Source: Nemertoderma westbladi
Taxonomy: Eukaryota; Animalia; Xenacoelomorpha
Assembly: GCA_032718475.1 (NCBI GenBank)
Contig: JAUCBJ010008780.1
Coordinates: 1 to 64,000 of the forward strand
Direction of reading: 5' to 3'
DNA length: 64,000 bases
Shown here piece after piece: positions 5,609 through 63,521 of this stretch. The translations under genes and the position numbers were made by a program. The notes beneath the pieces are model-generated. The model was not told where the DNA came from, searched no databases, and saw only the letters and a program-made list of their open reading frames with translations. Positions within the stretch are counted from its first letter, which is position 1, and every line of letters begins with the position of its first letter.

Positions 5609-6041
5609 CTCTCAGACACTAGCCAACAAAGTTGTAACAAATTATGTAAAGTCCTACGAAATATATGCAAAAAATAATTAAAAAATATTAGTAATGGATT
5701 ATTTTAAAAACATTAGTCACCGTAAAGTTCTATCTACCTTTAAAACAACACAGGGTATAACAAATTTGAAGACCAACAAGTCATATCCAAAAATATTTGA
5801 AAAGAGGCTTTATTAAAGAAATTATTATTAAATTTTATAAAAATTAAACATTATATTATTCACTATTTTGTTAACTAATATAAACTGAATTGACTTGTTA
5901 TTTGACACTATCAATTCAGGACATTTTGCATAACATAAACTACTATAATTGTTAGAAATAAGAATTCCAACTCCAGTGAAAGTTCAGTCACCGTAAATGT
6001 AACATTCGCGAAAATTTATTACAAAACAAAGCACATTGACT

Positions 6042-24950: not shown

Positions 24951-25018
24951 TATTTCTATATTTTAGAAACTGTGATTTGTTATATTTTATAGACTTAAAT
25001 CCCATTTTCTGGGAGCGG

Positions 25019-26196
25019 TGTAAAGGCTTTTGCATAATCAGCCGGTTATTTTCCCCGTAAAGTACTCTTTAGTTGGTTTAACAGGCATAAAAGGCCGTGT
25101 CCTTACTGTATTGTTGTTTTAGAGGACATAAAAGCCATTTCTTCTGTATGTGTACTTTAGCGGACATGATTAGCAATTCTATGACGCAATACGCCGGATC
25201 CTCTTGAAACAGTGTAGAGACCATGACGACGGCTAACAGCTGATATTGCCACGTGGAACATCTCTTTGTTCTTTGTTCTCTCTTTGTTCGGTCGACCAAT
25301 CAGAGCGTTTTTTGCCTCTGTGTTGGAGATTGTATATAGAAACTAGTGAAGTGAGTCAGTATGTGATTTTGTCCACAGCCTACAACACCGGCGTGGAACC
25401 TCCGTGTTTCAGTCTTTAGTTCAACATTAGTAGGCTTAATTATAGAGCGTATATCCGTTATCTCAACTTATCACACTAATCTAATCTCATAACTTAATCA
25501 TAAATCATACTCACTCATAACATACTTTAACATTACTGCTTTTGCTGTCGGTTATTCATTATATTTGTTGATGGAATATTATATTTGAAATACGTATCAA
25601 TAATCAGACACCCCAATCTTCTTGATATACTAAAGGTTAGAGAGACCGGTTACATATAACGATTGTGACTTATATTAAGTGGTTTGAAGTGAATCTAATG
25701 CTATTTTATAGGCCCTACATGTATTGTCTGTTATTCTCTTTGTATGTGACTAAAATTAGTGAAGGTCGGCAGATTGGTGTGCAGCATTGTGCAGTATTGT
25801 GTATGATTGTGATTGATAACGAAGCATCTCCTAAAGAATGCGCCATATACGTGAATCTATAGCCATCCCGTTGTGTATAGTTTAAGTCATAACTCTGTTT
25901 ATATATTTAAAGCGCCACGTCCTAAAGGAACTGTTAATATTTCCCGAAAGTGAATAATATTTGTCAGAGATTATATATATTAAGATCAGTCGAATAATAC
26001 AGTAGGCCTATCCCGCAATTCGATTAGGCTTCTGAATCCAGTCTCCCGGGTATATCCAGCGGGTGAATGATCGCGCATAGACTGGTTTCGGCTAATGTAG
26101 TGTATCAAATATTTGTCGTAGGCTAAAGACTATCTATTATCTAGAAGACATCCTAATTTGGCAGGTTAAACTGCTAAAGGTCTGAAAGCGCGAACA
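25019..26196 (+). repeat. E1 3' LTR (1178 bp)
   Basis: TGTAAAGG...GCGCGAACA, preceded by the PPT and followed by TSD AAGTC. Confidence 0.95.
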
Positions 26197-33965: not shown

Positions 33966-35741
33966 TTAGTCTTTCTTGCGCGGATGGCGTTTACGCAGTT
34001 TTTTAAAGCTAGCAAGAGTCCTTTTCTCTTTGGGGCGAGCCACTTTACGAGGAGGGCTATAACTCCTGGGTGAAGGGTGCAATATGATTGCATCAGAAGG
34101 TATGGGATTACGATCGGTATATCCGCCGGTCGAAGTACCGGGTTGATTGACATCAACGTCCGGGGAGAGGGGTCTAACGGCTTTGAGAGCTCGTTTCAAG
34201 ACAGCCGCTCTTACGGGTCCTGTACGAGTGGTCTGCACGAGGGCCGTGGGTGGACCATAGGTAGTTAGAAACTTCCTTGGTTTAATGGTTCTTTCCAACT
34301 CGCGTTCGCGGGCTCGATACTCGTAAGGCCGTCGATATACTTCCTGTAACTCGGGGTGTGAGTTGACAAATAAGTCTCCATAGGCAGGGTCTTGACGGAT
34401 AAAGTTTATTAAGTTGTAAGAATGGATGTCACTCGGATTAATGCTCCTGAGGAATTTGCGTACATATTTAGTTGAAATACATTCTCCAACGCGCTTCAAT
34501 AGTTCATAACTTGATAGGCGTGATTTCTGCTCGACGGAGGCAAACAAATAAGGATGGAACGCATAAACTCCTTCGTAAGCGCGTCCAGGGTAATAGCGAT
34601 GGCGTGAATCACAATGTAAATCAGCGTTCGCTTCCCAAGCTCTGATATAACGTAGTACAATCATTTCATCTACGCTCTCTAAATCATGATTAAAGGGACA
34701 ATCAAAGCTGGCGTGTCCTTTTAATTGACAATGATGGCATTGAGTCATAAATTGGGGGCAGACAGCAAAAATGTGCAAATTATTAAGCCGACAATATGCA
34801 CAATAGATTTCCATCGACGGTTGCTCGTGGAAATAGGAACAGAGATCGTTGGTGTCCATAGACGTAATATGGTCTCTCGATGCGCACAGCCGACAACGTT
34901 GTCTAGAAACATAATTGGCATGGCGATAATCATACGCAGTAAGACACTGTGGACCTTGATACCATTCCAATATGTAGTCGCTATCGCTACTCCGAGACAT
35001 GGGGGGCTGAATCTCTTCAGATTCTAAACATATGGGTTCGTCTTCCCCTTGTATAGTTGAGGTAGGCGTGGCTGTCTCCTCAAGTGGACCTATCGTCTGA
35101 ATTTCCACGACAGAATAACCTGTGGGGATCCGAGGTCTTTGGATAACCGAGGAGTGCAGGTTTATTATACAAATGTCTTTGAAAATAGCGAATCCAGCGC
35201 TATCTAACTTCTCCGCAGCCGAGTCTCTTAAGCTGAGCTTGGTCAAAGCGCGGTCTTTGAATTGGCTATCCACGTTGCGAAACGGGGTTAAAAACCGTCG
35301 GAAACATTCAAAGCAGATGAATTTATTATGTTCATCTAGCTTAGCGAGTTTGGTCCCAAGGATTAATGGATGGGCGCGTATAATGCGACTGCACACATCG
35401 GCTAGCCAACCGGAAAGTGCGGTGTTTTCGAAGATCGTGTAGATAGCTAAGGAGGGACGGAGTGGAACACTCATGAAGCTATACACGGCGCCAGGTGCGG
35501 TCAACGGTCCGTCAAAGTATAATCGAGAATAATGGTCTCCGTATACTTGTTGATAGTTGATGGGATTTCCGACCTTGAAATTCCATCCGTATTCCTGAAA
35601 AGCAAGATGTCCGATGGAAGTTCGTTGCACCTTTGTAATGTTGCTAGACGCATTAGCATACATGGTGCGAAAGAAACCTCGGCTTTCTGCCCAGGGAACA
35701 ATCAGCTGAGTATCCACGAAAGGGTATGGAATGTTCTCCAT
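33966..35741 (-). CDS. E2 ORF3b, 591 aa: putative DEDDy-exonuclease-like C-terminal half, three CCHC-type knuckles, basic tail
   Basis: Open frame; FVDTQL...SIGHLAFQEYGWNFK...GPLTAPGAVYSFMSV; CRLCASRDH..C, CAYCRLNNLH..C, CHHCQLKGHASFDC; KKLRKRHPRKK; no signal peptide or TM segment. Confidence 0.65.
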   Translation of the reverse strand: MENIPYPFVDTQLIVPWAESRGFFRTMYANASSNITKVQRTSIGHLAFQEYGWNFKVGNPINYQQVYGDHYSRLYFDGPLTAPGAVYSFMSVPLRPSLAIYTIFENTALSGWLADVCSRIIRAHPLILGTKLAKLDEHNKFICFECFRRFLTPFRNVDSQFKDRALTKLSLRDSAAEKLDSAGFAIFKDICIINLHSSVIQRPRIPTGYSVVEIQTIGPLEETATPTSTIQGEDEPICLESEEIQPPMSRSSDSDYILEWYQGPQCLTAYDYRHANYVSRQRCRLCASRDHITSMDTNDLCSYFHEQPSMEIYCAYCRLNNLHIFAVCPQFMTQCHHCQLKGHASFDCPFNHDLESVDEMIVLRYIRAWEANADLHCDSRHRYYPGRAYEGVYAFHPYLFASVEQKSRLSSYELLKRVGECISTKYVRKFLRSINPSDIHSYNLINFIRQDPAYGDLFVNSHPELQEVYRRPYEYRARERELERTIKPRKFLTTYGPPTALVQTTRTGPVRAAVLKRALKAVRPLSPDVDVNQPGTSTGGYTDRNPIPSDAIILHPSPRSYSPPRKVARPKEKRTLASFKKLRKRHPRKKD

Positions 35742-36407: not shown

Positions 36408-37037
36408 TCAACTCATGTCTCTTCTCCAGTGGTTCCCTTCTATTAGTTCAAAGCTATCTGAGACAACAGATAGTGGACGATCTGCGGTAAGATACATCAT
36501 GGTGAAATAGAGTCGTTTGAGTTCTACCATGGGATCGTGATGTATACCTTGAGGATATCGAGTCTCTAGGTTCTGTTGACTGGCAATATTGAGATAGGTT
36601 TCTCTCAAAAATTCCAAGTAGTCGTTGAAGTTAATACGCTTATCGGGTTCTTCAACGTTTTCTCTGTCGAGTAGGTTGCGAATAGAGTTCTCGTGTTCTA
36701 TTCTCGGTTTATCATTACGATTCCGCTGGGCATGATATTTAAATAAAACCATTTCCCTTTCGGTGTCTACATCATCAGTATCATGTAAATCGGTAGGATG
36801 GCCGGTAGTTAAGAAGTCCATATACGTACCATTACGATTCGTATAGCGAGCGGTGAATTTTCTATAGTCCGATTCACGCGTAAGTTGTTCCTGGGACATC
36901 GGCGGTTCGATATAACGACCATCGTCCTCCGTAATAGTCGGATCGGCTTCACCGCGTATCAAGCTATCCACAAACGCTTGTAAAGGTAGAGTATATCGCT
37001 CTCTAATACCAAGGTCATCTTCTATCAATTCCGTCAT
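36408..37037 (-). CDS. E2 ORF3a, 209 aa, N-terminal part of the additional ORF
   Basis: Open frame homologous to E1 23453-24020; the two diverge after SFE. Confidence 0.65.
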   Translation of the reverse strand: MTELIEDDLGIRERYTLPLQAFVDSLIRGEADPTITEDDGRYIEPPMSQEQLTRESDYRKFTARYTNRNGTYMDFLTTGHPTDLHDTDDVDTEREMVLFKYHAQRNRNDKPRIEHENSIRNLLDRENVEEPDKRINFNDYLEFLRETYLNIASQQNLETRYPQGIHHDPMVELKRLYFTMMYLTADRPLSVVSDSFELIEGNHWRRDMS

Positions 37038-38656: not shown

Positions 38657-41600
38657 TCACGTTATGGAGTCCCTAGATATTTGTCGGATTAGGGAAGTAG
38701 TCGTAGGAAGAGTATCTTGCCTTCCATAGTTTTCGGACAGTTTTCGGTCTCTTTCCAGTAAACATAAACGACTAGCTGGGCGATTGAGTTGTTGTGTTAC
38801 TTTCTCCGCTCCCTTGGCCTGTCTAATTTCTGCCGTGGTAAGATGAGGAGGCCATTCTTCTTCTTCTTTACTTAAGGAGTCGGATCCACCTAACCAGCCT
38901 GGAGTATCTATCAGTTCTTGAGGAGTTGCTCCTCTGGAAGCGATGTCGGCTGGATTAATCGTCCCAAGGCAATGTCTCCATTGATCTACATTGGAGTTAA
39001 TATCGTCATTATCTGAGGAGTATGGTGTTCCCTCAGTTGGATCGTCCACATCACTGCTCTCCACTTCCCATTCCTTTACTTGGTATACCTGTTGTTGAGG
39101 TAATCTCTCTTTGAGAGTTCTACGGGAAGGGCCAGTGAAGTACCAACCTACTCTAGTTCTTACCGCATAAGTTTGTAATGGCTGTGGTTGAGCAGGCCGT
39201 TTCTCTAATGTTTCGAGCGCCTCGTGCGCGTTTTGGCCGATGAGTATTTGCACTCCAGGATAATCTGTCTGGAATCGAGGTATCTTAAGATGTTGGATGC
39301 TCTCATCTTCGTCCCAATTATAAAGGTCTGCTTGAGTAGTAGCAAAGTTCTTTATAGCCACCATTTTTACTGACCTTATACCTTGTGTTCCTAACTTATC
39401 CTGGGGGGTGGACAACACACCTACATAGTAATCTGCCGTTAGGGTAGATTTCCAAACCTGCATAATTCCTGACATATTCAATTTAGTCCGGAACTTGGGT
39501 TGTCCAGCAAAGATATCTTCGGCTAGTTCTTGATCGATGAATGTTCCTGTGCTGCCGGAGTCAAGTAGGGCGTTCACTATGTAACTCTTGTTGAGACCAT
39601 GAACTCGAACTTGCACTACAGGAAATTCTCTTATTCCTATGTTGGAAGTTGGAACTTTCCAAGATGGTTGTTTGTCAAAAGGAGTTGGAGTAAACTCGTC
39701 AGTGTCCTTTTCATCCGTAAGTGCTCGATACACTGTGGTATTTATTAGATAACAGGATTCGTTGGCATCGGAGAATTCGTCTGTATAGAATCCTTCCCAC
39801 TCAGAACCTTGGTCAGTGTCGTTCACATCACTGAATTGGACATGTAGTTCGGGCTCACTTACCTGACTCGGGTTGTCTCGTTCGAACTCACTGTGTAACA
39901 AGATGTGATGTTTCGCGCCACACTTTGCACACTTTACGTCGGAGTAACAGGTTCGCCGTTGGTGTCCTGATCTGAGGCAATTATAGCATAACCGCTTATT
40001 CCACAGGACTGTACGTCTGTCTACAGGTGATTTCTTTAGAAATTCAGCACACGCACTCAAACGGTGGGGCCCGTCGCACAGCGCACATTTTGGTTTGATG
40101 TTACTCACCTTAACTTGGTTAACGTTCTGCACTCTCGTTCTTTCTTCGGGCTTTCTTCCGTGAATTCTCTTAGGAGACGTAGGAGGAGTTGTTGTTACCT
40201 GTTCTCTCCTGTCACTGGTTCGAGACTTGTATTTACTTATGTCTTTATAGGTCTTGTTGTCATAGTAAGATTTTGCTGTGTCTTTCCCGCTGTCCTCTTC
40301 TTGAGAAGCTTGGCTTTCGCCGTCGTCAGTATAACACACTGGTATTATCCTTCTCCTAGAAACGGGTTTCTCACTTACCTTATTTTCCGATGTTTTCTCT
40401 CTGGACTGCCTTATGAGTTGTAATTTTACTTCACTATCTAAGAAGGACATGAGATCAGCCATGGTAGGACTTCGTCGTTGTTGTTCATTCATGTACAACA
40501 CTTTCTTGTCCCAGCGCGTACATACTCCACCCTTTGGTAAAGTAGAGACTACGGCTCCAATGACCATGGAACTCTGATATTCATGCGACTTACCTAACCA
40601 GTCCAGTTGTCTACAGATCTCTTGAATTTCATCGGAAAACTCTATAATCCCGCTACTAAGGAAGTGTCGGGGGGCTACTAATTTTGCATACAAATACTTA
40701 GCTATGTTATCCTTGTTACCATACCTGATGTTTAGTGTATCCCAAACTTGTCTTAATCCATCTGGATGTCCAATAAACTTTAACGCCATTAACTTGGGAG
40801 GTCCTTCCAAGCACTTGATGAGGAATCTAAGTTTCTCTCCGTTAGATAGTACAGAGTTCTGTATGCTATCTTTGTAATATTCGTTGAAAGGTAACCATTT
40901 CATCTCATCTCCATTGAATTTGACGATCTCTCCCACTTTGACCGCTTGGCGGGCTTCTGTTCTAGCCATCTGACGCGTAAAGCTTTCTTGGGCCATCGTG
41001 TTATTTAATATCGAATTATCGGTATATAAATTTCTCGGATCATTATCAAGTCTATAGGGAATATCATTAATAACAGGTCTATAATCACCCTTAATAGGGT
41101 TTGCTATAGGAGTTTCAACTTCACTAGCAGTGTAGATGCGTTTAGGCTCCACACCTTGCGCATGTAGTACTTCAGACCTAACAGGTTGACACAAAGTTAC
41201 AGGGGGTATTGGTATGCCCTTTTGTATATTGACTAATTTGTCGCGTTCTAGCGCGATACTTTGCTGCACTTCTTGCAACTCTGCTCTACTTTCCCTCACT
41301 GTTCCCTTATGTTGGTGGACAGTCTCCTGCATCTGTCCCAGCAGGAGATTCATCCCACGCCGTCCCTCTTCCACCCACTCAACCGCCGAAGCGGGAGTCG
41401 CCAACATAGTAGCGGGCTGACGCGGGACGACGGGAGACAAATTTTTAATTTCTCTCTCTGCTATCTGGACAGGGATATTCTCTTGGACTGTTCCACCGGG
41501 TACAGGCAGTGTAGTACTATGTAAAGGGAATTTTGAGTTAAGCTCTGGAAGTACAGGGGTCTCTAACACAGAAGTGACTTTGGGAACGACAGGCCTAATT

Positions 41601-43345
41601 ATCTCAGGCTCATCAACTATCGTAGAGAGTCTTTGGACCTTAATACTTTGGGCCGTAGGTTCTATACTACTCAAGTCTGTGCTAGCTAGCTGTCTTCTAA
41701 CAGCTGGGGGCAAATCAGGCAATTTGCGACGGTAAGATGTTTTTCTACGCCTACTTAGATGAGATCTATTTCCTCCGCCTTCAGGATCGGTAGTGTCGCC
41801 TTCCTCCGAGGATGTGTATCCCTGGCGCTTGGGAGTAGATTTTCTCATCATCTGCATCTGATTAGCAGTAAACTGTTTATTTATACTGTCTTGCGTCTCT
41901 TGCAGATTTTCCAACTCTAGTTGGATAGTCTCCTCAGACGCTCTCCGTTCTGCTTCTGCCACTGTTGCCTTTCTTTCGGCTTCCGCCGCTTTTCTTTCTG
42001 CTTCTGCTTCTGCTGCTTTTCTTTCGGCTTCTGCTTCTGCCGCTTTTGCCTTTCTTTCGGCTTCTGCTTCTGCCGCTTTTGCCTTTCTTTCGGCTTCTGC
42101 TTCTGCTGCTTTTCTTTCGGCTTCTGCTTCTTTTCTTTCTGCTTCTGCTTCCGCCGCCGCTGCTGCTGCTACCTTTCTTCTCTCTATCAGTTCTTTCTTT
42201 ACTTGTTCTTCTCGGACTCTAGTGAGGCGGAGTTTTTCATCACATTCAGCTTGGTTTGCAGCTAACATTTCGGCATCGATTGAGTCCAACACAAGCTTGG
42301 TTCCTTCACTATTAGGGGAAAGTCCAGACAGCCGTCTCCTCAACTCTTCGTCTCCTAGGAATCGCTGATAGTCGGACAAATAAATGTCGATAGCGTCTCT
42401 AGTTCGCGGTTTCTCGGCGGTCTCTTCGCTTTCCGCTTGAGAAAGGGTGACATCAGTTTGTTCTTTACAGGTTGATCTCTCAGCCAGCTGGGATTTCCAC
42501 TGGGCCGTTTCCTGTACTTTGAGATCTACCCGATGTAACCAAGTTTTGACAGCAACCTGCAGCGACGTGTCCTGTCTTCTTTTGGAAGTTTCCTCAAAGG
42601 CTGAGAGGATTAGTCGTATGCATAGGGTTCTTTCGCGTATTTGATATAGCAGCTCTTCCTGCTCTTGAGGTCCTTGAGGTTGTCGAAACAGTTGTTCTTC
42701 CAATCGATCCAAGGAGCCGAAGAATCCCTGCACATATCCTGCTGCCGACCTCTTCCAAACAGCTGGATCCATAGTATCTTTAGCCACTCCCATCCTGTGT
42801 ATATCTTCCCAAGTAGCCTCGGACAGATCCAACGGGAGTCCGAGTCCGGGAAAGTTCCATTGTGATTCAACAATAGACATCAATTCTTCCCTGGCGTATC
42901 CCGCATAATTATCTTGGGTCGCTCGCTTATTTCTCGCCCAGTCGGCTTGATGTTCCTCCACCGCAATATATATAGTAGTTAGCACTGCAGCAGGAAGGGT
43001 AAGAAGGGGGTCCGAGTATACTGTAGCAGCCATCTGCACTCCGCGTTCGGGGGTCAGCTCTACAGTATCCGAACTGCTGGAGCTATCAGGTCGCTGGGAA
43101 GTAGGTTCTTGACCAAGATGTTGCTGCGATAGGACAGCTGCCTCTTGGTTCCGTTTGACCTGTGCCCGAGTGCCTATGATGGACCTATGGTGGATTAGCC
43201 TAGGGTCTGATACTACTGGAGGGATGACCTTTTTTGCAGTAGGAGGTGAGCTGAACTCCTTTCTTATTCGCTCCACACTCCTATCTGAGTCACAGATAGT
43301 TGTATCGATCAGACTGTCTGACAGGTTTTGCTGAGTGTCAGACAT
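38657..43345 (-). CDS. E2 Gag-protease ORF (1562 aa) fused in frame to short RNase H and integrase-tail remnants
   Basis: Uninterrupted ORF with an AEAERKA coiled coil, DUF1759-like domain, three knuckles and LLDSGS; junctions DNDD|..DQWRHC and GAEKV|TQQLNRP delete RT, most of RNase H and integrase. Confidence 0.9.
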   Translation of the reverse strand: MSDTQQNLSDSLIDTTICDSDRSVERIRKEFSSPPTAKKVIPPVVSDPRLIHHRSIIGTRAQVKRNQEAAVLSQQHLGQEPTSQRPDSSSSSDTVELTPERGVQMAATVYSDPLLTLPAAVLTTIYIAVEEHQADWARNKRATQDNYAGYAREELMSIVESQWNFPGLGLPLDLSEATWEDIHRMGVAKDTMDPAVWKRSAAGYVQGFFGSLDRLEEQLFRQPQGPQEQEELLYQIRERTLCIRLILSAFEETSKRRQDTSLQVAVKTWLHRVDLKVQETAQWKSQLAERSTCKEQTDVTLSQAESEETAEKPRTRDAIDIYLSDYQRFLGDEELRRRLSGLSPNSEGTKLVLDSIDAEMLAANQAECDEKLRLTRVREEQVKKELIERRKVAAAAAAEAEAERKEAEAERKAAEAEAERKAKAAEAEAERKAKAAEAEAERKAAEAEAERKAAEAERKATVAEAERRASEETIQLELENLQETQDSINKQFTANQMQMMRKSTPKRQGYTSSEEGDTTDPEGGGNRSHLSRRRKTSYRRKLPDLPPAVRRQLASTDLSSIEPTAQSIKVQRLSTIVDEPEIIRPVVPKVTSVLETPVLPELNSKFPLHSTTLPVPGGTVQENIPVQIAEREIKNLSPVVPRQPATMLATPASAVEWVEEGRRGMNLLLGQMQETVHQHKGTVRESRAELQEVQQSIALERDKLVNIQKGIPIPPVTLCQPVRSEVLHAQGVEPKRIYTASEVETPIANPIKGDYRPVINDIPYRLDNDPRNLYTDNSILNNTMAQESFTRQMARTEARQAVKVGEIVKFNGDEMKWLPFNEYYKDSIQNSVLSNGEKLRFLIKCLEGPPKLMALKFIGHPDGLRQVWDTLNIRYGNKDNIAKYLYAKLVAPRHFLSSGIIEFSDEIQEICRQLDWLGKSHEYQSSMVIGAVVSTLPKGGVCTRWDKKVLYMNEQQRRSPTMADLMSFLDSEVKLQLIRQSREKTSENKVSEKPVSRRRIIPVCYTDDGESQASQEEDSGKDTAKSYYDNKTYKDISKYKSRTSDRREQVTTTPPTSPKRIHGRKPEERTRVQNVNQVKVSNIKPKCALCDGPHRLSACAEFLKKSPVDRRTVLWNKRLCYNCLRSGHQRRTCYSDVKCAKCGAKHHILLHSEFERDNPSQVSEPELHVQFSDVNDTDQGSEWEGFYTDEFSDANESCYLINTTVYRALTDEKDTDEFTPTPFDKQPSWKVPTSNIGIREFPVVQVRVHGLNKSYIVNALLDSGSTGTFIDQELAEDIFAGQPKFRTKLNMSGIMQVWKSTLTADYYVGVLSTPQDKLGTQGIRSVKMVAIKNFATTQADLYNWDEDESIQHLKIPRFQTDYPGVQILIGQNAHEALETLEKRPAQPQPLQTYAVRTRVGWYFTGPSRRTLKERLPQQQVYQVKEWEVESSDVDDPTEGTPYSSDNDDINSNVDQWRHCLGTINPADIASRGATPQELIDTPGWLGGSDSLSKEEEEWPPHLTTAEIRQAKGAEKVTQQLNRPASRLCLLERDRKLSENYGRQDTLPTTTSLIRQISRDSIT

Positions 43346-46826: not shown

Positions 46827-49800
46827 TCTAATCCCAGCAGACAAGAACAAGGTAAAGCCCAATCTGGCGCACGAGTACGCATATCGGAGGCAACAATACC
46901 ATAAAGGCCTCAGGTAAGAACACCCATTCCTACGATCCATAATCCCAATATTTTGCATTCGGTCGAAAGATTTACAGAGGAAGCTTGGATTAGAGCTTCA
47001 ACGCGTAAACCAATACGAGCGCCGAGAAACGACACTGACTCGAGTGAAGAAGAGGAAGATTTGAGGCGTCAGAAGTCCCAAAACTGGAAGGAAAGAAGGA
47101 CTAACGCGGAACAAGTAAGTATGAACCCTCGGGAAGGGACCAGTCTTAACAATCCTGCAGAGTTGACCAACTTGATGCCCCGAAATAAAGATACCCTCAG
47201 GGACATTGGTAAGTTTGCTGCCAGGCAGGGTTTGCCGGCACAACAACCCCAGAAGTTTATGGGCAACAACAAACATTGGAGGACGTTTAAGATGTATGTC
47301 GACAAGCAGTTGACGAATAGTACCTTTACTCCCAATGAGAAATTCAATTACCTATTACAAATGCTCCATAGAGAACCGAGAGCCATTGCCGATACCTTCG
47401 TCGGCAATGAAAGAGCATTCGAACTAGCAATGAAGACACTTAGCGACATTTATGGGAATAAAACCAAAATGGCGCAGTCGATAGTTGAAGATTTGGGTAA
47501 GGGCGGAAAAATTATGACCCCTTTGGAGCTGTTGAACTTAGCCAACGCCATCTCGAACGCTTTGGATATTTTAAAGACGGTGAATCTACCTCATCATGGT
47601 GATCATGCGGAAGTCTTGAAGAGTATAATAAGACGCCTAAAAATGCGTTGTAGACAAAAGTGGCAAAAACTAGAAAATAAACTGGAGGGTCAGGACAATG
47701 TGTTGACTCTCAGACTTATTCATGATATGATAGCCACAGACGCGGTAGCAGAGATGAAGTCGAATTTTTCAGAAGAAAACATGAGAGAGACCAAGCCTGT
47801 TATCGGAAGGTCAATGGTGAGGTTTGATGAGGACAAATCAACTGTAACGTTTAACTCAATAGACAAATACAATCCAAGTCCAAGTAGCTTCATCCTAGGG
47901 TCAGATAGACCCAGGACAAAGCAACAGGAGTTGCCGGACGGTTTTGTAGGTTGTCAATTCTGCCTACTAAAGGAGGTAAGATCAGATGACCATAAGTTAG
48001 AGAGCTGTAGACGCTTCAAGGAGCTGACTTCAGAACAGAGGAGGGTTCAAGTGCGGTCATTAGACACCTGTTGGGCATGCCTTGCCCCAGCTCATGTACG
48101 GCGCCAGTGCCCAAACAGTAAAGACGGACGTGTGGAGTGTGGCAGATTACATCACAAGCTGCTACATGCGGATTTCCATGCTCCAACAGACCGTTATTTA
48201 CAGTGGAATCCTCAAAGGAAGGGAAGCTTAATACCCGCAACAATAAGGAAGAATACCTACGCCGGCATCCTAGACAATGGATATCAACCAGGTTCATCGG
48301 ATGAGGACGGTGAAGCGAGCGCGAGGGAGGTAACTTGCGAGGGATTTACCATCGATAGCTTGTCAACCAGCGCGAGGACGTATTTATCATCGGCCACGTC
48401 AGAAATATTCAGCATGATACCGGTGAAACTTACTGGAGACAAAGGGTTGAAAAGAATATATGTAATGTTGGACACCTCTTCCACATTATCATATATAGAC
48501 GAGGAAGTGGCGAGGGCTGTTTCCAGCTTCCAGGATGCTGAGGAGATAAAGATAAGTAAAAATCCATGCACAGGGTAGGAGATGTCAAAGGACATAAGAT
48601 TTCTGTCGAAATAGACTCCCTACTTCCGAGAGAAGAGCACACTCGCCAGGAAAGGAGAGCTTTGCCGCTGGATGGGTTTAAATGTTTGGCTATGAAGGGG
48701 TTCGGAAGGCAGTTAGGTAAGGTGCCACTAATGAGTCCCATAGCACAAGAGTATTTTGACGAGCTCAAAATACCAAGACACCAGATAGGTTATAGAAATG
48801 TGTCTATGTTGATTAGAGAGGAACAGCTAATCACGCACCAAATATGGGAAATGAGACCAGTTGAGCCATATGTAAATGGGCCACACGCCCATAGGACCAT
48901 ACTAGGTTGGTATACACGCATACCCATTCCATACGAGTTTCCAGGTGGCGACAAGCTGAAGGATGGACACGACGATTCGCAGTCTACATCACAGCCATCG
49001 TTAGTAGAACCACCAGATGTTGACGACTTTATGAGAGCCTGTATTGATCACTACAGCGACTTTAGCGAGTCGGAGGTGGAGTTGAGTCCTGATAATGTTA
49101 GATTATTGGAACCGCTCTAATACAACCGAACAGATAGTGAACCCGAGGACTACTGCTATCAGACCCATGGGTCTGGTTCAGTCTCCCACGCCACTTATTT
49201 GAGTAACGTCTTGACATATACCAATATAGTGGAAGGACAGGTGGCGAAATTTCGAGACCTCGACAATTTCCAATTCAACGAAGAGGAGTTGCAAAAGGAA
49301 TTGATGCAGCAAGACCTCGAGACAGGAGCTAGAACCATCGAATGGTTGGACAAAGACGTGATGGAACCTGGTGGATATGACTTAACTATGTCTACAGACT
49401 AGTAAAGATCTCTGGAGATGATGGAGGACACAATATGCCTGTTACCAACAGCACACTTCGAGGTTGGAATGTTGTGGCGTCGGCAACCCCCTAAATTGGA
49501 AAATAACTACAACCTAGCTTTGAAAAGATTAACCGGAGTAAGAGCGCAGTTGTTGAAGAATCAGGATATTAGGGAGAAATATTGCGCCCAAATTAACAAC
49601 TATCTAACCAAGAGATTTGCCAGGAAGGTAGAGAACCCCGACATTGAGACGGACCAGACTTATTATCTCCCGCACCATTATGTAACCCACCCTGATAAAC
49701 CAAACAAGGTACGAGTAGTTAATGACTACGTAGCAGTCTATAAAGGTATGTCTTTAAACTCCGAACTAATGGATGGTCCTAATCTCAACAACTATTTAAT

Positions 49801-52030
49801 AGGGATACTGTTACTCTTTAGACAGCGCCGATTTGCCTTCACTTGTGACATCGAGGCAATGTTCTACCAGGTGAGAGCCTGCAAGGCGGACCAAGATAGT
49901 CTCAGATTTCTCTGGTACGAGAATGAGGACCTATCAGGCCCAGTAGTTACATACCAGATGTACGTCAGAATATTCGGTGCCCGCGACAGTCCCAACGGCA
50001 CGCTGTTTGTCTTAAAGAAAACGGCGACAGCCCAGATTGGAAATTACCCGGTAGACATAATCGAGTCCATCTTAAGAAACTTTTATATGGACGATGGGTT
50101 GGTGTCAAAGGACACGGCAGAACAAGCCATAGATGTGGCTCACGGTCAACAGGAGTGCCTGGCTATGGGAGGGTTCCCGCTAACCAAGTTTACCACCAAT
50201 TCGGAGGCTTTATTGGAGTCATTCCCGGTGAAAGATCATGGGAGCGGAGACATCAAGTTGGGTGTAGAACCCATCCCTATGGCGCGAGTACTGGGACTCA
50301 GATGGAATCCGAACACGGATAAATTTCAGGTGAGGGTAAGATTTGAGCCCAGTAGCCCAGACAAAACCTTGACTAAGAGGATCTGCTTGTCGACCATGAG
50401 CAGACTATTTCACCCGATGAACTTTATCAGTCCAGTAATATTACAAGCACGAATATGTATGAGGAAAATATGGCTGTCCGACTTAGAGTGGGACGAGCCG
50501 ATATCCCCAATACACGCGAAGCAGTGGAGAGAGTGGGAAGCCGAGTTGCATCTATTGAAAAATATAGATGTACCCCGCTCCTACTTTCCAAATCAGCTGG
50601 TATTTCCAGCTGTTTAGAGCTGCACTTATTCAGCGACGCAAGTGACACTGGCTTTGGTATGGTAGCCTACCTTCGCCGAGAGGGAAGTCAGGATAAGTTT
50701 TAAACGGCCTTTGTTACTTCTAGATCAAAGACAATGCCAATCAAATACATGACTGTCCCTCGTGCAGAGTTGCAGGCAGCAGTAGTATAGGTCGAGGTAA
50801 GTAAACAGATAAGGGATGACTTAGACACGACCTTGACATTATTCTATTGGACGGACGCATCTTTGGTGCTAGTGTATATTGCAGCTGATAATATCGCACT
50901 AAAGACATTTGTAGCCAACAGACGTGCCCAGATCGTTGACTTTTCAATGAAGGAGCAATGGAGACATTGTCCAGGAGTGTTAAACCCCGCCGACATAACT
51001 TCACGAGGTGCCATGCCATCAGAATTCTGTCAGGAAGATTCCCAGGAGTTTTGGTTACATGGACCGGATTTTCTGACAAGGACACAGGAACATTGGTCAC
51101 AGATGCTGAAGATTGTTACCAATCCGATGCCGATAGACGCAGAGGTCAAGTTAGCTAAGGTTTCCAAGTCCAAGTCGAAGGCCAGACTAGAATCACTGTA
51201 GCGGCCTGAGGAATCATTGGAGCGGCCTGAGGAATCATTGGAGTGGCCCTGAGACTTGTCGGACCAAGAGACATATGTGACTACAAGGTCCGGAAGGGTA
51301 AGTTATGACATAAAACCACCCTTACAGACTGCCCAATGTTCACAGTTTGTAAGTGACGGACAGCAAATAATCACAAAGGTGGAGCCTTTGGTTTACAGAT
51401 CTGCGGATTTGGATTCGAAGATTCCATTAGCAAATACGCAACCGTCACCAACACTAGAGCCATGTAGTATTTATGACAAATTGATAAAATTGTCCGCCTC
51501 TTGGCTGACGATTTGTAAGAGAACCGCGTGGTTGAGCCGATATGTTTCGTCCCTTTATTTAAAATATACGAAGCATTTAGGAGATTAAACAAGTACTAAC
51601 AGTGAGCGAATTCGGAAGTTGAAACAACCTCTGACAGAGACTGAGATCGATCAAGCGGAATTAAAACATTTGAGACATTATCAAATGTGTTCCTTCCCAA
51701 AATAATTCAATCTATTATCGGCTCAACAACCAGTTCTTTATAAACCCCTCAGGAGGTGGAGTCCACTAATACATAAGAGTTTGATTTGTCATAGATCATA
51801 GATCATCTGTTACAGCCAAGCAAGGCGGTAGGTACAATGTACAACGCATGTCTGGTTTGCAAGAGAGTAAACGCCAGAGTATTGAAACAGGAAATGGCTG
51901 AACTCCCGAAAGCGAGAGTACAGGCATACGATCCACCCTTTATGAACACGGGAGTGGATTGTTTTGTCCCGATTGAGGCAAAGAGTGGACGACTGATGTT
52001 ACGATATATGGCGCTGTGTACTACTATCAG
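46827..52030 (+). pseudogene. E3 BEL/Pao gag-pol remainder (decayed, 3'-truncated within integrase)
   Basis: DUF1759-like gag, CWACLAPAH..C, protease MLDTSS, RT FYMDD, RNase H FSDAS/YWTDA, CLVC..PPFMNTGVDCF; many stops and frameshifts; no LTRs recognised. Confidence 0.88.
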
Positions 52031-53619: not shown

Positions 53620-54693
53620 GTAGTAAGTTTGCTGGTCTCCGGTCAGGTCAGGTATTCTAGGTCATTGATCAAGAAAACTTGCCACCTCCATGCAGCATAA
53701 AGGAGGTGCCACCTGTAGCTGCATAGACCCTCTTACTAGGGCAAATCTGGTCCTGTAACTAGGACCCCCTTCGTTCTGGGATAAGGACGCCCTTGGTCCT
53801 GGATTAAGGACCCATATACTTGGCTGCAGGGGTATATGGCCTGACCAGGCAGATGGTGATCTACCAATGGCTGGTCAGGAGTAGAGTGTTCTCATGTCCA
53901 CTCTGAGAGCACTTCACTGCGACCTGCACCTGGCAGCAAGGGTACAGGGCATGACCCAGCAGATGAGCTGCAACAGCCAATGGTGGGTCATGTGCGCCAG
54001 AGTAGATATGGGTGATGGGCCTCATATCTGACTCCATTGCGACACCCACCCTGTGGAATGGCAAACCAGGGTGTGGTATTTGCCCCGAGAGCTGACTCGG
54101 CAAAAAAGCACCCCCCAACCCCCACTATGGATTACATTAGCAATGCGGAGGTCCGGCCACTAGAGGCCAGTGGAATTACCGGACACAATCGGCCTCACAG
54201 GCGTCAGTTAACTCCTGACCGGCTGCCTGTCTCACCCCCTACTGGAGAGAGAGCAGCCAACAATTCTTTGAGTCCCTTTCCTGATGACCTTTCTGGCCCA
54301 AACCCTGGGTCACCAGGAAGGCCAGATTGTGATGGGGAGAGGGATTCTGGAGTTGGAGGCTACTCTCATGTTCCACCCCGACCAACAAAGCCATTGGTGA
54401 ATCTGAGGCAAGTCACAAGACTAGCCTCAGTAAACACCCTAACACTCGGGTCCCCAATGCGACAAGGTGAGCTGACTGCCTTGGCAGATAAGCTTTCTCT
54501 TAGCGCAGTGGGTGTTCAAGAGCACCGAATGCAGACTGGACAGACTGATGAGGTTCTGATTAAGGACATGGGGGGTGGTTGGCGACTCGCCCTCGCGTCA
54601 GCAGATGATAGTGGCAATGGTGGAATTGGTCTATTGATGAATCCAACTGCACATGCAGCATTGGACAAAATAGACCAAATCTCTAACCGCATC
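53620..54693 (+). mobile_element. 5' end of an RTE-clade LINE (structured leader plus APE endonuclease N-terminus), cut off by the Polinton-like element
   Basis: RLASVNTLTL...VGVQEHR...GGIGLLM...ISNRI are APE motifs; the frame is interrupted at AGTAGT 54694. Confidence 0.8.
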
Positions 54694-55339
54694 AGTAGTA
54701 AGATGAACCCCTTTTCGGCGACAGTTTAGTCCCACTTCGCACCTTGGGTGTTAAGTAGGTCATTAATTAATTAACCAATTAATTAATTGGTCGATTAAAC
54801 AATTAATTAATTGTTTAATCAATCGATTTGTATCAAATAATGTTGCCAAAGGCAATTTAATTTGATACAAATCAATCAGATAGGGACGCGCGATGAATAA
54901 ATTGTACTACAGCAAACGAAATATACAATACATAGGCACTGTCATACAATATACAATACATTTGTATTATTTTTGCCATACAGTAGGTAAAGATAGAATT
55001 AAATATAAAGACACGAGCGGGGCCCAAAACATAAATTACCCACTCACGATAATAAAGTGGCCCAGTTTGGCCCCTGAGTCATCCCTCAATAATCTGTGGC
55101 TGTTGGGCTCTTATTAACCGTAGCATGACTAACCCAAACATCAATGCGTGAATGGGGCCTGCCTACAGAGCTTTAAATTATTCAAACCTACAGCTTCGTT
55201 ATTACATCAATTCATCCAAGAAATTAGAATAAACATCTGCTCTTGCAATAGTTTGCATTCTTTCATATTGTATTGCGAAGCAGTTTACGCATGCATTAGC
55301 TCAACAACAAAGGCCATACCCAAACGCCATGTGTCAAGT

Positions 55340-55409
55340 CCATGTGAGGGTTGAACCCACGACCTATTGGAGATGTGAATTCAAAGCAACCACTACACCA
55401 AGGTGGAAC
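55340..55409 (-). ncRNA. tRNA-like Pol III unit in the left arm (same family as the SINE head at about 11510-11580)
   Basis: A box TGGTGTAGTGG and B box GGTTCAACCC. Confidence 0.5.
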
Positions 55410-55477
55410 AGTAACGTTTGAATTTGTTCGTTAACGTTCGAATTTGTAAGACTCTGATTTAAGACCTGAGGCACTCC

Positions 55478-55707
55478 CCACAACCACAGCCACATCCACA
55501 ACCACAGCCACAGCCACAGCCACAGCCACAGCCACAGCCACAGCCACAGCCACAGCCACAGCCACAACCACAGCCACAGCCACAACCACAACCACAGCCA
55601 CAACCACAGCCACAGCCACAGCCACAGCCACAACCACAACCACAACCACAGCCACAACCACAGCCACAGCCTCAACCACAGCCACAACCACTGCCACAAC
55701 CACAGCC
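55478..55707. repeat. (CCACAG/CCACAA)n hexamer array, left arm
   Basis: Directly visible. Confidence 0.95.
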
Positions 55708-56118
55708 TCACCTTCACCCACTTTATTGTTAAATACGCCTGAGAAAAATTCAAGAAACATCTGGTTTACAATAGATTATTCTTTTTTCACAACTCCATTC
55801 TAGCCTCCCTCTATAAAAGCCCCCATTCACCGCAACTGGTCATGTAAATGTTTACTGTTACTGTTTACTGTCTAAATGTTAAATGTAACTGTTTAACTGT
55901 TTTGATGTTCTTTGTTTAACCCCTATATTATTTATCCAAAGTTGAAAAAGAAAAATGAAATATAGTCGACTATTTTCTTATTTTTAATATAGCAACATTG
56001 AAATATATATTTATAACATAACACATATACATATACATATAGCAGAGTAACATTTAAGATATAACACATTGTAACACATAAGATATAACACATTGTAACA
56101 TTTCATTCAATTGTCTAA

Positions 56119-56877
56119 TTATCTTCTGCACTGTCTCGCATTAACTGTACGACTGTTACTGTTCATAATCCTAGGTAGATATACAACAGTTGCTGGAGAT
56201 ATAACTTTTCCATTCCCTACTCTGATTTTCTGTCCATTTTCATTGTCATTCTCCTCTGATGCTTCCTCACTGTCATCGCTTCCCTCCTTTGATTCTTCCT
56301 CACTGTCATCGCTACTCTCCTCCGATTCATCCTCATCACTCTCATTTCCTTCATTATCACTCTCCTTATGCGAATGTTTCTGCATTTCATTCAATTGTCT
56401 AATTATTTTCTGCAATTTATTTTTATTTCCTAATACATGTCTTAATATCTCCTCATTATCTGAGTCATTATCCTCACCACTTTCATGTTCCTCGACTTCT
56501 TTCTCGCTCTCATTTTCTTCACCACCACTCTCATTTTCTTCTTTCTCTATCTCACTCTCCGTTTCATCATTCTCACTTTCCTCTGATTTATTCTCTTCCT
56601 CACTCTCATCGTCCTTTTCACTATGTGGCTGTTTCTGTATATTCTTCAAAATATTCATGATTTTCTCGAATTTATGTTTCATCATTTGTTTAATCTCTAG
56701 AAAATCACTCTCAACTCTCTTTTTGTTTTCTTCTTCACTAAAAATATCATCATTATTTTTTAATTTCTTTGGTAATGGTTCCATTACACCTTCCTTTCTA
56801 TGTATACTCATATGACGGGATATACTGTCTCGTCTCATTTCTTTATTACAAACCAAACATCTTTCATAGCTAGGCAT
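56119..56877 (-). CDS. 252-aa protein with an N-terminal C2H2 finger, NLS-like segment and two acidic repeats
   Basis: CLVCNKEMRRDSISRHMSIH, PKKLK, duplicated helix plus E/S/D-rich blocks; upstream TATAAAA (57018-57024, minus) and TCATT initiator-like motif. Confidence 0.7.
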   Translation of the reverse strand: MPSYERCLVCNKEMRRDSISRHMSIHRKEGVMEPLPKKLKNNDDIFSEEENKKRVESDFLEIKQMMKHKFEKIMNILKNIQKQPHSEKDDESEEENKSEESENDETESEIEKEENESGGEENESEKEVEEHESGEDNDSDNEEILRHVLGNKNKLQKIIRQLNEMQKHSHKESDNEGNESDEDESEESSDDSEEESKEGSDDSEEASEENDNENGQKIRVGNGKVISPATVVYLPRIMNSNSRTVNARQCRR

Positions 56878-57128
56878 TATATAGCAATGTCAATTGATAT
56901 TATGAATTTTCGCTGAATGATTTTACAAAATTTTAAATAAATAAAACTTTTATGAAAATAAATAAAACTTTTAAAAATAAAAATTAGAGAATGAATGAGA
57001 ATGCGGTGAATGGGGGCTTTTATAGAGGGAGGCTAGAATGGAGTTGTGAAAAAAGAATAATCTATTGTAAACCAGATGTTTCTTGAATTTTTCTCAGGCG
57101 TATTTAACAATAAAGTGGGTGAAGGTGA

Positions 57129-57742
57129 GGCTGTGGTTGTGGCTGTGGTTGTGGCTGTGGCTGTGGCTGTGGCTGTGGTTGTGGCTGTGGCTGTGGTTGT
57201 GGCTGTGGCTGTGGCTGTGGCTGTGGTTGTGGCTGTGGCTGTGGTTGTGGCTGTGGCTGTGGCTGTGGTTGTGGCTGTGGCTGTGGCTGTGGCTGTGGCT
57301 GTGGTTGTGGCTGTGGCTGTGGTTGTGGCTGTGGTTGTGGCTGTGGTTGTGGCTGTGGTTGTGGCTGTGGTTGTGGCTGTGGCTGTGGTTGTGGCTGTGG
57401 TTGTGGCTGTGGTTGTGGCTGTGGCTGTGGTTGTGGTTGTGGCTGTGGCTGTGGTTGTGGCTGTGGCTGTGGCTGTGGCTGTGGCTGTGGTTGTGGCTGT
57501 GGCTGTGGCTGTGGCTGTGGTTGTGGCTGTGGCTGTGGCTGTGGCTGTGGTTGTGGCTGTGGCTGTGGCTGTGGCTGTGGCTGTGGCTGTGGTTGTGGCT
57601 GTGGTTGTGGCTGTGGCTGTGGTTGTGGCTGTGGCTGTGGTTGTGGCTGTGGCTGTGGTTGTGGCTGTGGCTGTGGTTGTGGCTGTGGCTGTGGCTGTGG
57701 TTGTGGCTGTGGTTGTGGCTGTGGCTGTGGCTGTGGTTGTGG
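57129..57742. repeat. (GTGGCT/GTGGTT)n hexamer array, right arm, about 100 units
   Basis: Directly visible; inverted, expanded counterpart of 55478-55707. Confidence 0.95.
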
Positions 57743-57810
57743 GGAGTGCCTCAGGTCTTAAATCAGAGTCTTACAAATTCGAACGTTAACGAACAAATTC
57801 AAACGTTACT

Positions 57811-57880
57811 GTTCCACCTTGGTGTAGTGGTTGCTTTGAATTCACATCTCCAATAGGTCGTGGGTTCAACCCTCACATGG
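57811..57880 (+). ncRNA. tRNA-like Pol III unit in the right arm
   Basis: Inverted copy of 55340-55409; a TTTT run follows at about 57896. Confidence 0.5.
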
Positions 57881-58457
57881 ACTTGACACATGGTGTTTTG
57901 GGTAGGGCTTTGTTGTTGAGCTAATGCATGCGTGGACTGCTTCATAAAGTACAATATGAAAGAATGCAAACTATTGCAAGAGCAGATGTTTATTCTAATT
58001 TCTTGGATGAATTGATGTAATAACGAAGCTATAGGTTTGAATAATTTAAACTCTATGGCAGGTCCCATTCACGCAGGCCCCATTCACGCATTGATGTTTG
58101 GGTTAGTCATGCTACAGTTAATAAGAGCCCGAACAGCCACAGATTATTGAGGGATGACTCGGGGCCAAACTGGGGCCACTTTATTTTCGTGAAAGGGTAT
58201 ATTTATGTTTTGGGCCTCGATTGCGTCTTTATATTTCATTGTAGAGTATAACTCAACAAGGGGTTCCATGGGATGCTTAATCCTTCACGCATGCCATACC
58301 AAAAACTATGGTTCTGTTTGAAATGTTAAGGTGGACCTTTCTATATAAATAAAACCATGTAAAGTTAGATCATTATCTCTAAAAATATTAAGTGAGGTTT
58401 TTAAAAGTTTTTTAAAAAGTATATCTCAATAAATTTTGTTTTTTGTCTTTTGTTACT

Positions 58458-58760
58458 ATGGAATATTTCATATGTCCTTATGATGCCACACACAGAATTC
58501 ATTCAGAAAAATATGTTACGCATTTAAGAAAATGTCGTAAGAACTTTTCGAATCAAAAAATGGTTCAGTGTCCTTTTCAACCCGCACACAGCTTTAGAGA
58601 AGCTGAAAAGGATCACCATTTGCGGTTTTGCGAATATAGGTCCAGGAACTCAATTTTTCATATATTAAAAGAACAGAAAAAAGAAGAGAAAAAAGAAGAG
58701 AAAGAAGAGAAGAAGGGAGAATGTTCAATGGCGTGGGGAGAAGAGGTGTGGGATTATTGA
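58458..58760 (+). CDS. GTSF1: GTSF1/Asterix-like protein, 100 aa, with two CHHC U11-48K zinc fingers
   Basis: CPYDATH-x9-HLRKCRKN and CPFQPAH-x9-HLRFC match the GTSF1 tandem fingers; C-terminal WGEEVWDY resembles the Trp/acidic PIWI-binding segment; TATATAAA near 58342 and TCATT near 58370. Confidence 0.88.
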   Translation: MEYFICPYDATHRIHSEKYVTHLRKCRKNFSNQKMVQCPFQPAHSFREAEKDHHLRFCEYRSRNSIFHILKEQKKEEKKEEKEEKKGECSMAWGEEVWDY

Positions 58761-59984
58761 TCACATGGTGTTTGGGTAGGGGTTTGTCTTTGAGTTAATA
58801 TGCGCGTGGACTGCTTCATAAAGTATAACGCAAAAGAATACAAACTATTGCAAGAGTAGATGATTATTCTAATTTCTTGGATGAATTGATGTAATAACGA
58901 AGCTATGGATTCAAAGGGATTAGTCAAACTGGGGCCACTTTATTTTCGTGTGAGGGTATATTTATGTTTTGGGTCCCGATTCGTGTCTTTTTATTTAATT
59001 CTACCTTTACCTATTGTATGGCAAAAATAATACAAATGTATGTATATTGTATTGCACAGTCCTATTGTATTGTATATTTCGTCTGTTGTAGTACAATTTA
59101 TTCATCGCGCGTCCCTATCTGATTGATTTGTATCAAATTAAATTGCCTTTGGCAACATTATTTGATACAAATCGATTGATTAAACAATTAATTAATTGTT
59201 TAATCGACCAATTAATTAATTGATTAATTAATTAATGACCTACTTAACACCCAAGGTGCGAAGTAGGTCCAACTGTCGCCGAGAGTGGCATACTATTACT
59301 ACTGCGCTTATTTCTGTCTTATAACCTGTAAATATACTCATTCGTTTATTGTTTTGGTTAGATTCACCCCTTCTATAACCTGTGTTTTTGGTGAAAACCT
59401 GGTATTCTTCACATGGGGGTAACTGCAAAGTGAAATATAACGGCAGAAAGACTGGTATTCTTCACATGGTCCTTTAATTAACTCATATTTGGGTTTAAAA
59501 AGATTGTAATTACGGATTGGATTATACAAACAAATACGTACAAACAAATACAAATACTAATATTGAAATAACTCATATATATTTAATTTAATTTGTTTAA
59601 TTACTGTAAACAGCAATAACTGCCATATAGATAATATACCAGCACCAATAATTATATTTTTTATTAATTATATTTAATTATATGTGGATATGTACAAGTA
59701 TAACGCCCCGAATTCAATAATTATCCGCCAAACCCACCCTATGGATCCCCGCCCCATCTCCGAACCCTAACCCTCGCAAAGACCGCCATCCACCACGGAG
59801 GCAGAGGGAGCTGGACTGGAGGAGCGCAAACTGCAGCCACCGGCAAACACCCCTGAGGACACATGCGAGGCCCCTTAATTATTTTGCACTTAGGAGTTCG
59901 TATTATTCCCACGTGTGGTGCCTTCCCGGCACGCCAAAATCTCCCCCTCTGAGTCATAGTTCGCTCCTCCCATCTTGGCATCGT

Positions 59985-62254: not shown

Positions 62255-63521
62255 CTAAGTCTTCTGCATCGATTCCATTCTCCTCCACCCACTCCTCCAT
62301 CCCGTCCTCATCTCCAGGACCTCATCCTTACTCGAGATAGTAGTTTCCACCATCCTACTCGGCCTCGTCTGTAACCCTATCTCCTCGGCCACCCAGTTCT
62401 CCACCAGAGTGAAGGCTGCTCCGCTGTCGACCAGCATCAATGTTGTGACTGATCGGCTGCCCTTTCCTGTTATTCTCACTGGTACTACCCCGAGTAGTAC
62501 TTTCCTATTTCTTCTTGCTCCCGTGGTGCTCGAAGCCATAGTTTGGCCTCCAGTCTCATCATATCCTATCGGTGTTTTTTCACACTCTCCGATTCTGTGT
62601 CCTTCCACCACGCAGCGATGACATAGTCCATTTGTTTCTGCATAGGCTACCCGATCTTGTTTAGGCGACGCTTGCCAATGCTTACAACTCATGGTCTTAT
62701 GGGTTCCATCCCTATGCAATTGACATTTGTATCCTGGATTGTAGCGTTCCTTGTATAGTCCTTCACATATTGCGCGTAGATTCATATCTACCGGTTTAGT
62801 GTTTTGATATTTGGACTTGGCCTACTGGGTATGTTGGTGTATTTTGTTTCTGTCCCTGCCACGGTGTGGCCCTACTCCCAGCTAACTGTGGACTAGCAGT
62901 CCCCTGCGTGGCCGCATGTGGTAGCGTCTGTCTCATTCTTGGGAATGGATCCGCCAGACTGTGAATGGGTTTAGGCCTGTTGTATTCAGCTTTTGGTGCC
63001 TTCCCCAAACTATCCTCACTGTAGACTGGGTCTGTAATCAACTCTGCCTCATAATTGAGGAAGTTCGACATTTCCTCTAGGCCCGGTTCCGCACCTTTCT
63101 TCTCCCGGGTGGAGAAGGCGAACTTCCTCCATTTGTTTCTTAGCCAGATTGGCAGTGCCTGCGCTATCATGGTGATGTTATTTGAAGCGTTGAGTTCGTA
63201 TGGCGCATCCAAGGTCTTTAGCACAATTAATGCCTTCTCAACCTTATTCGCAAAAGTCTTTATACTGACAGGGTTGTTCTGTAGGCCACCCAATGTTATC
63301 CCCCTCAAGGTCTGCCGGATGATTTTGGCAGGGTGTCCGTATTCCCTGTCCAGGGCCCGCCATGCAGTCGTGAATCCGCCCTCGATACCTTGATACTGCC
63401 TTATGATGTCGTAGACTGGGCCCCCTATGTAAACTTGTAAATATTTTAGGCACTCCACCTGCGTCAGATCGAATTTAAATGGCACCTCTGGCCTCGATCC
63501 TAGTCTTAAGTGCATCGACAA
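62255..63521 (-). pseudogene. E4 gag and aspartic protease, frameshifted
   Basis: LKYLQVYIGG...AWRALDREYGHP, CHRCVVEGHRIGEC, LMLVDSGA. Confidence 0.8.

Follow-up and report, generated by a model that had tools for sequence, protein, structure and literature searches.

GTSF1/Asterix and its paralogues (structures 6x46 and 9nhb/9nhc) combine tandem CHHC fingers, a basic finger 1 and an acidic Trp motif located about 40 residues downstream. According to the available text of PMC9385479 and bioRxiv 2020.08.11.246769, residues R26, R29, K36 and K39 of mouse GTSF1 are required for RNA binding and for the stimulation of slicing, and tight PIWI binding depends on W98, W107 and W112; the former source further describes slicing stimulation as requiring RNA binding (PMC9385479). 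GTSF1 and Mael act in one PIWI complex, as stated in the accessible part of PMC13269885 and in the title of PDB entry 9nhc, which names a SIWI-piRNA-target-GTSF1-Maelstrom complex.

Polintons or Mavericks (adintoviruses) display long terminal inverted repeats (TIRs), intronless accessory ORFs near their ends, and (AGT)2//(ACT)2 termini, the latter being the commonest end type among vertebrate Mavericks, whose intact members measure 12.7-24.6 kb (PMC8097293, text available). Host-derived accessory genes such as IAP and Bcl2 are carried by these elements (PMC8502044, text available), and MAEL is labelled in at least four places on the adintovirus maps of the supplement to that paper, in whose searchable text the terms CHHC, GTSF, U11-48K and gametocyte gave no matches. 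MAEL on such elements is also named in the accessible parts of two preprints (10.1101/2025.02.07.637071 and 10.64898/2026.07.28.741253), where no function is assigned to it.

Whether mobile elements of animals act directly against the piRNA pathway has long been a question. A 2019 review counts, in the part available, only three anti-silencing mechanisms encoded by transposable elements (TEs), all of them from plants; the plant factors that it treats include VANDAL VANC21/VANC6, rice mir820 and the Athila6 tasiRNA (PMC6719617).

In this work, we analysed a window of 64,000 nucleotides from the genome assembly of Nemertoderma westbladi (contig JAUCBJ010008780.1), and describe an intact GTSF1-like ORF (58458..58760, + strand) that lies within a terminal repeat of a 4.6-kb, largely palindromic carrier element (54694..59303) with AGTAGT...ACTACT ends, a position that supports the proposal, made in an earlier note on this DNA, that a mobile element has captured a member of the GTSF1 family. 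The locus differs from each of the described systems. In comparison with GTSF1/Asterix, the protein has neither the N-terminal leader nor the tail past the Trp motif, and its gene is intronless, occurs in several versions and is placed inside the terminal repeat of a mobile element. The carrier, in turn, differs from Polintons in size (4.6 kb), in the lack of pPolB, integrase, ATPase, protease and capsid genes and of a target-site duplication (TSD), and in having GTSF1 as cargo. Like the plant factors, it would present a TE gene possibly acting on host silencing; those are, however, element-specific inventions or small RNAs of demonstrated function, whereas the gene described here is a captured animal cofactor known from sequence alone. 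Since MAEL is already annotated on adintoviruses, a Polinton that has acquired a piRNA-pathway gene is not new in kind; no GTSF1 borne by a mobile element came up in the literature searched, where papers mentioning both were judged by title and the start of the abstract, and the supplements of the two preprints could bear on this novelty. Judging from the features detailed below, the GTSF1-like gene is probably a selected cargo acting on PIWI.

Identity and relatives of the GTSF1-like ORF

The uninterrupted ORF encodes 100 aa with two CHHC fingers (C6-C26 and C38-C58), a Lys/Glu-rich linker, W93 and EEVW98DY, and its C-terminus reads WGEEVWDY; the intronless frame, its two fingers and this terminus agree with the earlier reading of the letters. 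The Pfam search for zf-U11-48K advised at that time was carried out and returned two stretches above the cut-off (E 3.3e-10; 40 bits versus 21.1). The closest solved structures were mouse GTSF1 (6x46, E 2.6e-11) and the GTSF1 chain of 9nhb (E 2.9e-8). An 81-row alignment, in which all 8 zinc ligands of both fingers were invariant, yielded an AlphaFold2 model that is confident over residues 1-60 (pLDDT 90-95), with 6x46 and the GTSF1 chain of 9nhc as its top fold matches in the PDB; the same model gave no match at E 0.001 or better among viral structures by Foldseek. Membership in the U11-48K or TRM13 families was considered and rejected, as the protein consists of 100 aa with two fingers and no further domain, and U11-48K matched with an E value of only 0.063, versus 2.6e-11 for GTSF1.

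A total of 434 relatives were retrieved with HMMER at E 0.001 or better, none of them close: among the best 150, identity reached at most 57%, and finger identity was 47% to the best N-terminally matched relative. Named relatives (from HMMER and from 64 profile matches) are animal GTSF1-like proteins, with many rows carrying no name, and no named row among the 64 profile matches or the 10 clusters looked up bears a viral or Polinton label. In the Atlas, 29 of 30 matches fell in zf-U11-48K sets and were eukaryotic. A word-index protein search retained none of 76 candidates, and pattern searches, which reach close relatives only, found no relative of the ORF in metagenome contigs, nor any relative of it, of the 252-aa core ORF of the carrier or of two short homologues in viral contigs. 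The gene was likely captured from an animal host. No donor is named here because in a tree built from 34 of 36 rows over 61 columns the ORF occupied a long branch and belonged to no supported set.

Functional surfaces of the protein

In the alignment to mouse GTSF1, the ORF has H15, K18, K25 and K28 at the positions of R26, R29, K36 and K39, so that three of the four positions of the basic ridge on finger 1 are basic. This alignment bore out the residue mapping that had been made by hand, in which K36 and K39 were kept, R29 was replaced by Lys and R26 by His, and nothing remained past the Trp motif. The earlier suggestion of a PIWI decoy finds no support in these residue changes. Among the 138 of the best 150 matches that have a regular double finger, only 30 have Arg at the R26 position, where 5 have His, and at the R29 position 107 have Arg and 21 have Lys; both substitutions are thus ordinary, and tail-less relatives exist in 4 clusters. 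A decoy crippled by R26H and R29K was rejected on this account.

The motif EEVW98D aligns with the conserved Trp of the homologues and sits 39 residues past the last Cys of finger 2. Of 145 double-finger proteins (a set that includes 8 extra cluster members), 104 show an acidic Trp motif, and the median distance in these is 41 residues; two Trp residues are present in the ORF, versus three in mouse GTSF1. Only 8 of the 104 motif-bearing homologues, belonging to 4 clusters, end within 5 residues of the Trp motif, and 96 carry more than 5 residues after it. Two unnamed database proteins of about 105 aa, P0021 and P0023, have the same minimal build and end one residue after W-D/E; two members lie on 49-kb contigs, and no match was obtained in viral contigs. 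Because the basic ridge and the Trp motif fall within the natural range and tail-less relatives exist, the protein has the appearance of a minimal working GTSF1 that retains both surfaces and lacks the variable tail.

These surfaces would suit an activator as well as a competitor, and the sequence does not decide between inhibition and activation. The protein could be a minimal, fully working GTSF1 that stimulates PIWI slicing and is kept for a host dose benefit or for the suppression of competing retroelements such as BEL/Pao, a reading that we consider rather unlikely. The ridge and acidic-Trp motif within the natural range, the existence of P0021 and P0023 as short proteins ending one residue after the motif, the report that mouse paralogues remain activators of particular PIWIs (PMC9385479, text available) and the many Pao domains nearby in the window are all consistent with it. 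On the other hand, an activator would also strengthen the silencing of the carrier's own family, and the majority of homologues continue past the motif (by more than 5 residues in 96 of 104). Interference with silencing is preferred over activation because a selfish element gains from less silencing, which is a prior expectation, and because Polintons also carry MAEL; data from the locus itself do not enter into this preference.

The cassette, its promoter and the direct repeats

The ORF belongs to a 513-bp cassette (58244..58756, + strand; 33% GC) that is unique in the window and comprises promoter, leader and coding sequence. TATA boxes and initiators of Pol II promoters follow a spacing rule. 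Upstream of the ORF, TATATAAA begins at 58342 (TATA box, 58342-58349) and an initiator-like TCATT occupies 58370-58374, its A lying 30 nt from the first T of the TATA box; the pair (58342..58374, + strand) shows Pol II spacing, and a comparable one arose in 187 of 20,000 shuffles of the 214-nt leader, in a post hoc test. The gene's own TATA and initiator-like motifs, as claimed in the earlier note, are thereby confirmed, together with their correct spacing. At 58392-58457, the leader also contains a donor-like GTGAG and, immediately ahead of the ATG, a T-rich tract, with no AG acceptor; this segment may be what is left of a short intron, and would then favour capture at the DNA level over capture from mRNA.

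The cassette is located in the right inverted arm of the carrier only (57002..59303, - strand), which is interrupted by it and by a duplicated arm segment; the left arm (54694..55834, + strand; about 1.14 kb) is without it. It is flanked by direct-repeat copies. The 5' module (57883..58243, + strand) is ordinary arm sequence that is present in the left arm as well, and the 3' module (58757..59003, + strand) is a shortened duplicate of it: 57883-58032 and 58757-58906 are 88% identical, and 58166-58243 and 58925-59003 are 89% identical. The TGA of the ORF is located within the opening bases of the 3' repeat. The joint 58032 to 58166, which defines the shortened 3' form, was seen in two independent DNA runs (X1 and X2). 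In all four runs, loose ends occur at 58240, corresponding to versions of the repeat module that run on into other sequence and not into the cassette. Recombination between the direct repeats would delete the cassette and produce the left-arm form.

Copies and selection in public DNA runs

Three public DNA runs from two studies contain the stretch (X1, X2 and X3, with X1 and X3 from one sample); the best-matching run may be the window's own source. No RNA run with the stretch came up in this look-up, which has no bearing on expression. Contigs were compared over 57760-58679, that is, codons 1-74 of the ORF and the sequence upstream. Over one ORF interval, at least 4 (X1), at least 5 (X2) and at least 5 (X3) distinct contigs were counted, 0-20% diverged and with no joints between the two fingers, in the 32 records listed out of a set with 2,835 further ones. 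Four listed records with 6-8% divergence run across the start codon and contain the non-coding leader of the cassette, and the indels listed in these versions fall in the leader and not in the ORF. The records diverged by 14% and 20% are restricted to coding sequence and show no link to the repeats; such coding-only contigs could be host genes and may inflate the selection signal. One listed contig crosses the 5' junction of the cassette with 28 letters on the arm side, versus a bar of 31 letters. In run X5, from a third study under the same species label, the arm is covered and the cassette is without cover, which we count as no evidence of absence.

Codons 1-74 hold 15 listed differences, of which 8 are synonymous and 7 non-synonymous; they alter no zinc ligand and create no stop, and they were drawn from 40 listed differences, with 69 further ones, and the same versions recur across runs. 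The synonymous share of 8 in 15 exceeds a neutral expectation of 0.18-0.28 (p 0.002-0.036), giving a rough omega of 0.19-0.35. Gaps were found in none of 10 diverged ORF-only records versus 5 of 13 diverged non-coding ones (p 0.046), a comparison of non-independent records in which 5 mixed and 4 identical records were set aside; overall, none of 13 ORF-only records was gapped. A dN/dS estimate had been suggested beforehand, and this small, truncated and mixed sample of contigs over codons 1-74 gives at least 4 to 5 versions per run and a rough omega below 1. The several diverged versions, the synonymous excess and the intact frames argue against a single neutral retrocopy, which would have undone the proposal. 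As far as these sequences indicate, the GTSF1-like gene has likely been kept by selection across a family of copies.

Equally unlikely as the activator, in our estimation, is that the gene is a passive passenger, i.e., a host GTSF1 paralogue of which a copy entered the repeat and multiplied through the success of the element, the synonymous excess stemming from host paralogues or from an earlier functional phase. Such an account is compatible with the cassette being dispensable, as the left arm is without it, with the coincidence of the TGA and the repeat junction, as expected of a truncating capture, and with the 14-20% diverged contigs that are not tied to repeat sequence; moreover, several GTSF paralogues are common in animals (PMC9539491, text available), and the selection test is based on 15 sites. 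Nevertheless, among the records listed, the 6-8% diverged versions share the cassette leader and confine their indels to it, a promoter stands at the correct spacing upstream, and the ORF-only records are free of gaps (0 of 13), all of which speaks against a passenger.

The carrier element

The edges of the inverted repeat coincide within one base with AGTAGT (54694) and ACTACT (ending at 59303), so the locus shows the long TIRs ending in (AGT)2//(ACT)2 that define Polintons/Mavericks, with arms of more than 1 kb. Arm-to-arm identity is 94.6-100% of aligned bases, with 4-5% mismatch plus indels except in the innermost 120 bp, and the arms differ already within the first 30 bp. The 1.2 kb between them holds a single ORF of 252 aa (56119..56877, - strand), with an N-terminal CxxC...HxxxH finger-like motif followed by an acidic low-complexity region, and TATAAAAG in the arm (57017-57024, minus strand) is directed at it. 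This core ORF had no Pfam family above the cut-off, a word-index search retained none of 11 candidates, and the Atlas returned only leads below 0.9, two of which are C2H2 clusters of large DNA viruses.

None of the 21 frames scanned within the element (stop-to-stop, at least 45 aa, low-complexity frames dropped first) matched the Polinton core proteins pPolB, integrase, ATPase, protease or capsid; no polymerase, ATPase, protease or capsid family of Polintons appeared in 56 other long frames of the window, and the only integrase-type matches in the scanned frames belong to a Pao element. A 6-bp TSD was not found between the flanks (CGCATC versus GCGCTT), and one 5-mer with one mismatch was obtained among 30 combinations of length and offset. 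The flanks do not continue each other: an ORF on the left runs into the end of the element, and on the right all three + frames close within 30 codons. No exact copy of a 25-nt TIR motif was found in viral or metagenome contigs.

The earlier description of a Polinton/Maverick-like element bounded by AGTAGT is consequently upheld for the end motif and the long inverted repeats, and not for the core genes or the 6-bp TSD, in a unit of only 4.6 kb. Polinton ancestry is inferred from the end motif and the long inverted-repeat architecture alone, and from its sequence the carrier is likely at most a non-autonomous Polinton derivative rather than an intact Polinton, which would work like a helper-dependent Polinton satellite. 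The absence of a TSD and of core genes, together with arms that show 4-5% mismatch and indels, marks an old, recombined or misassembled copy, which may have arisen by recombination between two insertions.

That the carrier is not Polinton-derived, or that the 4.6-kb unit is a recombinant or an assembly join of two insertions, with the cassette coming from another repeat (an LTR-like direct-repeat unit, or a longer element seen by one end), is in our view very unlikely. The missing TSD and the flanks that do not continue each other, the arms that differ in their first 30 bp and the fact that no listed contig spans the whole of 57760-58679 all point in that direction; against it, the inverted repeat ends at the Maverick motif with arms above 1 kb, and a recombinant of two family members would leave the claim of a cargo gene standing. 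An LTR-type origin of the direct repeats is a weak rival, given that the direct-repeat module is ordinary arm sequence with loose ends at 58240 in all four runs.

Several minor features of the arms were recorded. A 70-bp repeat inside both arms (57811..57880, + strand, and 55340-55409), found also outside the element (11510-11579), reaches very high depth in all four runs; by eye we take it to be a tRNA-derived SINE head, probably an ordinary one, ARAGORN found no tRNA in it, and its one Rfam match was below threshold and was rejected. The closeness of a tRNA-like repeat to a gene whose family binds tRNA is curious. Two adjacent AT-rich palindromes in the outer repeat (54766-54876 and 59122-59232) are possible replication or integration signals. 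Finally, both arms contain a (GTGGCT/GTGGTT)n microsatellite (55478-55721 and 57125-57745) that differs in length between them and keeps an ATG-led frame open in each (109 and 237 aa); the two frames share their start and end and are probably non-coding.

Proposed mechanism and significance

In the course of events that we propose for a selected cargo acting on PIWI, the captured cassette would be gained or lost by recombination or template switching between the direct repeats, and the non-autonomous, Polinton-derived element would be mobilised by an unseen helper. The GTSF1-like gene would be transcribed from its own TATA/Inr, and the protein would bind target-engaged PIWI through W93/W98 and RNA through finger 1. 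The tail-less copy would then compete with host GTSF1, leading to weaker silencing of the element's family. The complete chain, including the inhibition of silencing, is put forward tentatively, as a real possibility that falls short of being probable. A counter-argument is that broad TE-encoded suppression of piRNA silencing would be self-defeating, as it harms host fertility and so the element itself (PMC6719617, text available).

A wider generalization, which we regard as doubtful, is that both cofactors of the target-engaged PIWI complex are captured by Polintons (Maelstrom in some lineages, GTSF1 here), with stripped versions serving as antagonists; the present gene would in that case encode a protein suppressor of piRNA silencing belonging to an animal transposon or virus, which satellites would provide in trans from a pop-in/pop-out cassette in the terminal repeat. 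Considered alongside the MAEL genes of adintoviruses, which are unexplained, the locus suggests that capture has repeatedly targeted the PIWI-GTSF1-Maelstrom complex. A natural GTSF1 variant of 100 aa can be used in the published PIWI slicing assay, which makes the question of direct conflict testable, and an activator result would still define a minimal working GTSF1.

Surroundings in the window

The ORF that runs into the left end of the element (54058-54729, + strand) is not continued by the right flank and has no Pfam match; by eye, we presume a resemblance to the N-terminus of a LINE endonuclease. A frame at 6003-6608 (+ strand) begins in the manner of a signal peptide, includes a Cys-rich part and gives a weak Ig-domain match (E 8e-5, below the cut-off). 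The window is otherwise a nest of BEL/Pao pieces (DUF1759, Peptidase_A17 and DUF5641) at 14245-21818, 38657-43345, 47121-51201 and 62255-63515. An intact Cys/His-rich ORF of 591 aa (33966-35741, - strand) and one of 209 aa (36408-37037, - strand), both without a Pfam match, adjoin a BEL/Pao gag-like ORF of 1562 aa, and their recurrence as related sequence near 23700-25030 suggests a Pao family with extra genes.
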